A stretch of DNA of 64,000 nucleotides from Acidobacteriota bacterium (GTDB taxonomy: Bacteria > Acidobacteriota > Vicinamibacteria > Vicinamibacterales > UBA2999): contig JANLWW010000011.1 of assembly GCA_031364805.1 (NCBI GenBank), forward strand, positions 9,149-73,148, written 5' to 3'. How positions within the stretch are numbered: the first letter of the stretch is position 1; each line of letters opens with the position of its first letter. The translations under genes and the position numbers were made by a program. A model generated the notes under the pieces. The model was not told where the DNA came from. It saw only the letters and a list, made by a program, of their open reading frames with translations, and did not search any database. Of the stretch, positions 52,311-53,577 are shown in pieces.

Positions 52311-52376
52311 GGCTAGCTCTCTCCGATTCGGCTCTTCCGAGTATACGCCGTCATTTCCCGATCATCCGTTTGGAGG

Positions 52377-52414
52377 GGCTAACTATATCTATACCGCTTG
52401 CCCGTCGGCCTAAC
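52377..52414 (-). other. candidate attI region (two direct GTTAGSC cores on the minus strand)
   Basis: GTTAGGC (52414-52408) and GTTAGCC (52383-52377) lie between the intI stop and the first cassette ORF. Confidence 0.35.
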
Positions 52415-52572
52415 TCGAACCATCCTTTGCCGAATGCAGGCGGCTAAGGAAGTCGAAGCCGACGGCAGCAGGCACACGGCAAGTGTTGCGTGCGCCGGAT
52501 GATAGCACCGACGTGGCCGGGTGGCTGCGTTGGGCCTTAGCCGCCAGGGCGCGTCGATGGTCAGCGGTCACA

Positions 52573-53577
52573 TCACCGGCGCGCCGGCACGGGCAACTGA
52601 TCCGCCGGACTTCGCACGCCCATCACACCTCGATTCAGTACGTGCGTATAGATCATCGTCGTGCTGACGTCCTTGTGACCCAATAGCTCTTGCACCGTCC
52701 GGATGTCCGCCCCACTCTCCAGTAAGTGCGTTGCGAAGCTATGGCGGAACACGTGACACGAGACGCGCTTCTCGAGGCCCGCCAGCTTCGCGGCTTCGGC
52801 AACCGCCTTCTGCACTGCTGACTCATGCAACCGGAAACGGCTGGGCGGCCCCCACCTTGCGTCCCGGCAGATCCGCGTCGCCGGAAACACAAACTGCCAC
52901 CGCCATTCGACCGGCGCATTCGGGTACTTCCGCGCCAGCGCATCCGGCATCGTCAACCTGCCGAAACCACCCGCCAGATCGCGCTGATGCAGCCGCTTCA
53001 CATCCTGCAAATGATGCGTTAGCGCCTCCACCACCATCGCCGGCAACGGCACCGGCCGATCCTTGCCGCCCTTCTCCGCTCGAACCATGACTTGACGGCC
53101 GGACAGGTCCATATCCTTCACTCGCAGATCCAGACACTCGCTCAGCCGAAGCCCGCCGCCATACAGCAACACGGCAATCAGCCACGCCACGCCCTGCAGA
53201 TGATCCAGCACCTGCGCGACCTCCTCTCGCGACAGCACGACCGGCATGTGAGTCCCCTTCTTCGCCCAGGTCACACTCGCCAGTGGCGCCAGCGGCCGCT
53301 CAAGCACGTGCCGATACAGGAACAACAGTGCGCAGAACGCCTGGTTCTGCGTCGAGGCCGACACTTTCAGGTGCTCAGCAAGATCACTCAAGAACGCCGC
53401 CACCTCGGGCGCGCCGATGTCCACGGGATGCCGCATGCCATGGAACACGATGTAACGCCGGATCCAGGCGACGTAGCTATCTTCGGTCCTCGGGCTGAAG
53501 TGCCGAAGCCGAATAGCCGATCGAACCTGCTCCATGAGTTTTGGGCGGCCGTTCTCAACGGCCGGGACGTTGGGCAT
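52573..53577 (-). CDS. intI: integron integrase (tyrosine recombinase IntI)
   Basis: 334-aa ORF with an N-terminal SAM-like block ([30 protein letters not shown]). It carries the IntI-specific insertion [21 protein letters not shown], plus [12 protein letters not shown] and [14 protein letters not shown] catalytic boxes. Confidence 0.9.

Follow-up and report, generated by a model that had tools for sequence, protein, structure and literature searches.

Integrons whose integrase gene is transcribed toward its own cassettes were described between 2004 and 2008, and IntegronFinder handles this co-directional architecture routinely; the array of Treponema denticola, in Coleman's account of 2004, reportedly holds 45 cassettes. 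The layout is known from T. denticola and from the "inverted integron-integrase" group (Boucher 2007; Nemergut 2008; Wu 2013, PMC3607928), which is paraphyletic and whose layout is recognized by IntegronFinder (Cury 2016, PMC4889954). Here we analyzed a stretch of 64,000 nucleotides (nt) from an Acidobacteriota bacterium (assembly GCA_031364805.1, contig JANLWW010000011.1, positions 9,149 to 73,148), hereafter the window, in which an earlier sequence-only reading had noticed an integrase gene, intI, facing a set of cassettes bounded by attC recombination sites. We identified the integrase, worked out the architecture, strand, and coordinates of the attC sites, and mapped the crossover in the attachment site attI; together with the fixed locus and the differing cassettes of relatives, these results make it almost certain that the window holds a sedentary chromosomal integron with the co-directional ("inverted integron-integrase") layout, in a soil-type and probably Vicinamibacteria-like member of Acidobacteriota.

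The window shares with the inverted integron-integrase group an intI on the strand of the attC top strands and cassette open reading frames (ORFs), an attI 3′ of intI, and an R box about 200 nt past the gene (190 nt here and about 215 nt in Treponema brennaborense). Like members of that group, it is chromosomal and sedentary, with cassettes mostly lacking an assigned function and transposases in the array. It differs in its host phylum, Acidobacteriota, and in its short array of four to five cassettes. With the sedentary chromosomal integrons of Vibrio and Xanthomonas, it has in common a full-length integrase alignment to VchIntIA that includes the IntI-specific segment, homogeneous attC sites within the array, toxin-antitoxin cassettes, a fixed locus, and cassette turnover. 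Those integrons, however, are divergent and have far larger arrays, whereas the window's intI lies on the cassette strand and the unpaired L″ base of the bottom strand is C, not G. The class 1 mobile integrons are matched by an attI with a GTTRRRY crossover and a core-like direct repeat about 30 nt upstream, a repeat that resembles DR1 of attI1; a 14-codon ORF ending on the crossover loosely resembles ORF-11 of attI1. Unlike a class 1 integron, the window scores below the cut-off of the class 1-type equivalog NF011946 (299.3 bits vs. 435) and has the opposite intI orientation. It is also without transposon or plasmid context and without resistance cassettes; its context is chromosomal, housekeeping, and syntenic.

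The integrase is encoded by a single ORF.

52573–53577, minus strand: intI, integron integrase of 334 amino acids, intact, with the IntI-specific segment at about residues 211–240

The sequence-only reading had seen tyrosine-recombinase boxes in this ORF and an extra segment that marks IntI as opposed to XerC or XerD, and both observations held. Against the NCBIfam model TIGR02249 ("integron integrase"), the protein scored 413.5 bits with a cut-off of 265, whereas the XerC and XerD models remained below their cut-offs (TIGR02224, 158.9 bits vs. 335; TIGR02225, 153.1 bits vs. 330); with XerA included, the Xer models gave 153–163 bits against cut-offs of 220–335. The Xer-model matches fell into two separated stretches, the pattern expected when an extra segment interrupts the Xer fold. 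Pfam returned the usual SAM-like N-domain and catalytic domain. The protein aligned over its full length to VchIntIA of Vibrio cholerae (PDB 2A3V; E 5e-79), with the IntI-specific segment pairing residue for residue with VchIntIA residues 203–232 (PTALKEKYPNAPYEFRWHYLFPS in VchIntIA). The catalytic set was complete in an alignment to 2A3V and 84 relatives (R144, K169/K172, H275, R278, H301, and Y310), and the ORF is an intact intI.

On the minus strand below intI, one ORF after another is followed by an imperfect palindrome, which opens with GCCTAAC or GGCTAAC and closes with GTTAGGC or GTTAGGT. Because Rfam gave no match (nothing at gathering thresholds over the window and nothing at E ≤ 1 over 45000–53800), we built covariance models for the purpose. 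The first, R1, combined three window sites with eight sites downstream of the IntI homologues of loci L086 and L087 (77% identity) and was run over the full 64 kb with filters off. The second, R2, was trained on 116 sites from other loci only and none from the window, although its training sites were picked with R1, whose seed held the window's three sites. The array comprises four sites, one of them interrupted.

51790–51707, minus strand: attC1, 84 nt (R1 71.3 bits, R2 55 bits)
51077–51010, minus strand: attC2, 68 nt (R1 69.1 bits, R2 57.2 bits)
50414–50408 and 48764–48673, minus strand: attC3, split by an insertion sequence, with R″ box GCCTAAC at 50414–50408 and, in the remainder, R′ box GTTGATA at 48679–48673
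46164–46082, minus strand: attC4, 83 nt, the last detectable attC (R1 67.7 bits, R2 61 bits)

The attC alignment supports a structure of 19 pairs, with 95.2% of cells paired and compensatory changes at eight pairs; none of 500 shuffles reached the observed value, and sliding the partner dropped pairing to 25–36%. R1 produced exactly three strong matches in the 64 kb (E < 1e-14), all on the minus strand, and reads of the same three sites on the opposite strand gave 9–26 bits. Besides these reverse reads, R1 found nothing further below E 0.1 over the 64 kb and no attC 5′ of intI. R2 recovered the identical three sites at 55–61 bits, on the minus strand only, and across the models, the E values ranged from 1e-10 to 1e-16 on that single strand. 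The 3′ part of attC3 was a weak R1 match at 48766–48674. The GTTAGSC core is concentrated in the same region, with eight of its nine window matches falling within 46158–52414, where about 0.6 would be expected. The sequence-only reading had named the failure of a covariance model to find attC sites as a refutation; such a model does find them, and the placement of all of them 3′ of intI was borne out.

These results bear on a reading in which there is no integron at all and a Xer-type recombinase happens to lie beside unrelated palindromic repeats, such as repetitive extragenic palindrome-like elements or terminators. Tyrosine-recombinase domains are indeed common to Xer proteins, and the repeats are GC-rich hairpins after ORFs. 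Nevertheless, the Xer models score far below and the IntI model far above their cut-offs, and the IntI-specific segment is present. The repeats also follow the R″/L″/L′/R′ order, end in AAC/GTT, and leave positions 16 and 23 unpaired; attC-type repeats occur in arrays beside IntI homologues in dozens of other loci and nowhere else in the 64 kb. Model scores, attC covariation, and attC distribution thus refute this reading, to which we attach a negligible probability.

The attC structure also fixes the orientation of the array. With the minus strand taken as the top strand, the geometry is that of a canonical attC: the spacer is shorter on the R″–L″ arm, L″ contains one extra base, and unpaired bases occur at positions 16–17 and 23. 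By the published definition, the recombined bottom strand carries unpaired bases on the arm opposite the AAC triplet (PMC5027507); because the plus strand of the window holds the unpaired bases on that arm, it would be the recombined bottom strand. Cassette ORFs, attC top strands, and intI all lie on the minus strand, and the layout is therefore co-directional. The unpaired L″ base is an invariant top-strand G, hence a bottom-strand C, in attC1, attC2, attC4, and the attC alignments; in the literature, G is the usual bottom-strand base. Position 23, the second unpaired one, varies. We considered a tie between the unpaired base and the layout and infer nothing from it: counted across loci, the top-strand G occurs in 100/124 co-directional and 19/26 divergent cases, with models biased toward G. 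A link between the unpaired L″ base and the integrase residue equivalent to W157, a putative base-contacting residue of VchIntIA, was likewise dropped, since that position is R in 81 of the 84 relatives whatever the base.

We then placed the crossover in attI by aligning the region 3′ of intI in the window with that of seven relatives (L084, L085, L086, L087, L097, L098, and L099; 77–100% IntI identity).

52377–52572, minus strand: attI region, with about 190 nt from the intI stop to the crossover, from the alignment of eight loci
52383–52377, minus strand: second core, R-box GTTAGCC, with the crossover at G52383|T52382
52414–52408, minus strand: first GTTAGGC, repeating the core in direct orientation 31 nt ahead of the crossover; not conserved as a core

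The intI–attI spacer could be aligned up to an invariant AGATAyMGTT in all eight loci, and directly after GTT, the sequences became unalignable. The stretch from intI stop to crossover measured 180–192 nt in six loci. L084 and L085 encode an identical IntI protein, yet they continue after GTT with GTTAGCCACCC... and GTTGAACGAAAC..., respectively. Conservation up to GTT followed by divergence, even with an identical integrase, therefore places the crossover at the second core, G52383|T52382. The sequence-only reading had listed two direct GTTAGSC cores and had located attI within 52311–52572; the interval was right and both cores exist where it put them, but only the second is the crossover. 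The first is not a conserved core because it reads GCTAGGC or TTTCGGC in relatives, although it could be an accessory site.

The ends of assembled contigs cluster around these sites. Among independent metagenome assemblies, two Logan contigs (L083 and L090) break off precisely at the G of GTT in attI, contigs often stop 190–300 nt past intI or at attC sites, and L091 and L095 begin no more than about 30 nt before attC4. Such breaks fit repeat- or variant-driven breakage at recombination sites; as crossover evidence they are weak, other contigs ending elsewhere. The 14-codon ORF mentioned above (ATG...TAG, 52423–52379, minus strand) follows a Shine–Dalgarno-like AAAGGA and has its stop codon on the attI crossover; its ATG is present only in the window and L084/L085 and not in L086/L087.

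Both sides of the integron are chromosomal. The 5′ side begins 114 bp from intI with genes for MBL, MFS, pcs, and thyX on the same strand, and this block, syntenic in L084, L088, and L097, holds no attC, much as the sequence-only reading had described it. On the distal side, the chromosomal backbone resumes with one gene.

45282–44854: DUF8412 gene

An Acidobacteriota metagenome-assembled genome from NCBI (L097; 78% IntI identity) shares the flanks of the window: thyX-pcs-MFS-MBL-intI precedes its cassettes, and DUF8412 and SpoU follow them. Its cassettes, which are also co-directional, with attC sites on the intI strand, are wholly different (PemK, RelE/MqsA-like, AAA, Anthrone_oxy, Rce1-like, and glyoxalase). 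The same backbone with different cassettes therefore points to a sedentary chromosomal integron with cassette turnover. L084, L085, and L099, like L097, carry other cassettes than the window at the same attI, and downstream co-directional arrays are also present in L086, L087, and L098. The comparison for cassette turnover that the sequence-only reading had called for thus finds that 45.3–52.4 kb is not invariant in relatives, and cassettes appear to have been exchanged on an evolutionary timescale at a fixed chromosomal locus.

The synteny also counts against a conventional divergent integron whose true array formerly lay 5′ of intI, with the downstream attC sites forming an unrelated cluster without integrase. 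Such clusters are established in many genomes (PMC4889954). Here, however, the 5′ side is the conserved housekeeping block without attC just described, conservation ends exactly at GTT 190 nt 3′ of intI in the eight aligned loci, and 28 related loci have the co-directional layout. Refuted by attC positions, L097 synteny, and the crossover alignment, a lost 5′ array is very improbable.

In the co-directional integron that we propose, intI reads toward its own attI, with the crossover about 190 nt past the stop codon and four attC-bounded cassettes beyond. By the standard integron mechanism, IntI would recombine double-stranded attI with the folded bottom strand of attC. Since the attC bottom strand corresponds to the plus strand of the window, new cassettes would enter at G|TT beside intI with their coding strand pointing away from intI. 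We infer that the system is active at present. It is unlikely that we are looking at a decaying relic, a real integron whose array is frozen and whose IntI has stopped moving cassettes: intI has its full length and every catalytic residue, attI is conserved over IntI lineages of 77–100% identity, relatives with 78–90% IntI identity hold different cassettes at the same crossover, and the three intact attC sites score as well as those of long arrays. What such a relic would explain is that the array is identical in all of the near-identical strains sampled (L088, L089, and L093–L096, with the same cassettes as the window), that an insertion sequence interrupts attC3 and the remnant of a second one lies in cassette 4, and that the distal segment is without attC, the site being reckoned lost.

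Some of these observations also count against the main reading. With an array identical across the near-identical population and attC3 disrupted, present activity may be low, and the last segment (46087–45283) has no terminal attC. The unpaired L″ base of the bottom strand is C rather than the usual G. The attC models were built from this same attC family and hence are not independent, even though R2 contains no window sequence. Finally, the support for recombination comes from sequence and not from direct observation.

We examined how the layout is distributed with an R2 scan of 84 loci holding IntI relatives of 52–90% identity from many phyla. By attC position, 28 loci were co-directional and 16 divergent, a ratio biased by the preference of R1 and R2 for this attC family. 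Contigs ending beside intI on the expected side hint at further loci of both kinds, about 10 co-directional and about 14 divergent. In a neighbor-joining tree of the 84 IntI relatives, made without a Treponema reference, the two layouts occupied separate parts with two exceptions, and the window fell among the co-directional loci, in a region where almost every locus that could be classified has this layout. On this tree, the co-directional layout is clearly the norm in this IntI clade and no oddity. The sequence-only reading had called the layout a minority one, which stands for the classical literature set but not for this IntI neighborhood. Individual arrays depart from either pattern: L041 carries attC sites to the left and right of intI, all on one strand (2142–3301 and 12365–13509), and L076 has a single reversed attC (13932–14028) within a co-directional array.

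The spacer between intI and attI contains further conserved sequence.

52507–52499, minus strand: TGCTATCAT, an extended −10-like box and candidate cassette promoter, invariant as TGnTATCAT in eight relatives
52545–52535 (S1), 52449–52439 (S2, inverted), and 52432–52424 (S3), minus strand: three co-varying copies of GC(G/A)GCnAAGG

Folding of the spacer is more stable than that of shuffled sequence (z −3.7), and the copies can form two mutually exclusive stems, with 94% of cells paired in S1:S2 and 98% in S2:S3. The three copies could be alternative stems or candidate protein-binding sites; their covariation is weak evidence, since it stems in essence from a single evolutionary split. For transcription of the cassettes, there are two candidate routes. 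Transcripts from the intI promoter may run on into the cassettes, as the sequence-only reading had suggested, since no terminator is predicted before cassette 1, and we regard the TGnTATCAT box as an equally good candidate for the cassette promoter. That the cassettes are transcribed from this box and not by read-through is a tentative proposal, somewhat short of an even chance. The box is invariant in eight relatives while its flanks diverge, and it faces the cassettes and precedes the crossover by about 115 nt; integrons, moreover, normally keep expression of intI low. However, a sigma-70 promoter and terminator consensus scan of 51600–53900 detected no promoter, no −35 element at the spacer box, and no terminator between intI and cassette 1, which leaves read-through unblocked. 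More distant co-directional loci lack the box, and it lies within the conserved stem S1:S2, which would suggest a structural role in RNA or DNA instead. As a general feature of co-directional integrons, TGnTATCAT was rejected, since it occurs only in the clade of ≥77% identity and in one other locus.

The spacer (180–192 nt) as a whole might be a regulatory module specific to co-directional integrons, a switch or a set of IntI-binding sites gating cassette transcription, a notion that we consider quite improbable. Such gating may apply to transcription leaving intI or starting at the TGnTATCAT box. If true, the module would couple integrase and cassette expression in a manner not open to divergent integrons, and the conserved spacer is the sole lead toward something new at this locus. 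On the other side of intI, the 114-bp 5′ region contains a palindrome, GATCGCA-N5-TGCGATC (53661–53643, minus strand), and a repeat of GTTCTTGC, and the region is partly kept in L087 although the upstream gene differs there. The region may contain an operator or a promoter of intI, and nothing in its 114 bp was recognizable as a LexA box.

Beyond the crossover, the array is made up of four cassettes and a distal tail.

52382–51713, minus strand: cassette 1, toxin-antitoxin-like pair of DUF433 (52310–52086) and DUF5615/PIN-like (52105–51785) genes
51712–51016, minus strand: cassette 2, ORF 51679–51101 (192 amino acids, N-terminal hydrophobic segment), without family match
51015–48679, minus strand: cassette 3, ORF 50896–50450 (148 amino acids), without family match, with the split attC3
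48678–46088, minus strand: cassette 4, secreted enterochelin-esterase-like gene 47867–46224 (547 amino acids) plus an IS110-family remnant
48037 to about 48630, plus strand: degraded IS110-family transposase remnant in cassette 4, upstream of the esterase gene
45283–46087, mixed strands: distal tail of about 800 bp, without terminal attC

The stop codon of the DUF5615/PIN-like gene lies inside the R″ box of attC1. The IS110-family remnant retains an N-terminal part and a C-terminal piece with shifted frames. The ORFs of the distal tail encode a four-helix membrane protein (45572–46087, plus strand) and a DinB-like C-terminal remnant (45460–45284, minus strand), and an AT-rich stretch lies near 45540–45570. 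The GC content is 0.57 over cassettes 1–3 vs. about 0.64 around them, and PADLOC found no anti-phage defense system among the cassettes. The first cassette of another Acidobacteria integron (L001 1669–2173, minus strand) is likewise a DUF433/DUF5615 pair, homologous to that of the window (53% and 48% identity) and oriented opposite to its own intI. Two IntI lineages share the first-cassette start TTGAACGAAACCGC... (L099 2473–3330; L085 3271–3319). The first cassette of L099 encodes a 285-amino acid Xer-like tyrosine recombinase that scores 193.7 bits against the IntI cut-off of 265 and appears to be without the IntI-specific segment.

The element that splits attC3 is an insertion sequence (IS) in its own right.

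48765–50408, plus strand: IS1111-family insertion sequence of about 1644 bp (ends ±3 bp), inside attC3

Both of its ends carry 12-bp subterminal inverted repeats, CAGGCCTCCCCC (48774–48785 and 50390–50401), and its DEDD transposase gene (48823–49894) matches PF01548 and PF02371 with one frameshift. A non-coding region of about 510 nt follows 3′ of the gene. Removing the IS in silico restored a 98-nt attC of the family type that folds into a hairpin. Some IS1111 members are known to target attC and have subterminal inverted repeats of 11–13 bp. The insertion shares all four structural marks with this IS1111-attC group (ISPst6, ISKpn4; Tetu & Holmes 2008; Post & Hall 2009; Siddiquee 2024, PMC11187229), namely the 12-bp repeats, the DEDD transposase, the long non-coding region downstream of its gene, and insertion at one attC end, and we assign it there by structure. 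It differs in its frameshifted transposase gene and in terminal extensions that seem longer (9–12 bp left and 4–7 bp right vs. the reported 7 and 3 bp); its host is an Acidobacteriota chromosomal integron, whereas the IS1111-attC group is found in clinical mobile integrons. Complementarity of a guide (seek) RNA to the target was sought in the non-coding region: the 8-mers ACGCCTAA (49925) and GTGCAGCC (50023) match the two target flanks, a length expected by chance, and the best 8-mers were no better than those of shuffled sequence. Rfam had no match in the non-coding region (E ≤ 1, in the search of 45000–53800). A related co-directional array also has an IS110-family transposase gene at its distal end (L098 10146–11180, minus strand); there, too, the gene and the cassettes occupy opposite strands.

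The locus is a well-documented ordinary case and no new kind of element, and it leaves the understanding of integrons unchanged. Its value is as a well-resolved reference for the annotation of soil metagenomes, with a crossover resolved to the nucleotide purely by comparison, chromosomal boundaries defined at either end, and cassette replacement seen at a fixed Acidobacteriota locus. Among environmental IntI relatives, the co-directional layout appears roughly as common as the divergent one and follows integrase phylogeny, a frequency that matters for tools and surveys presuming divergent orientation.

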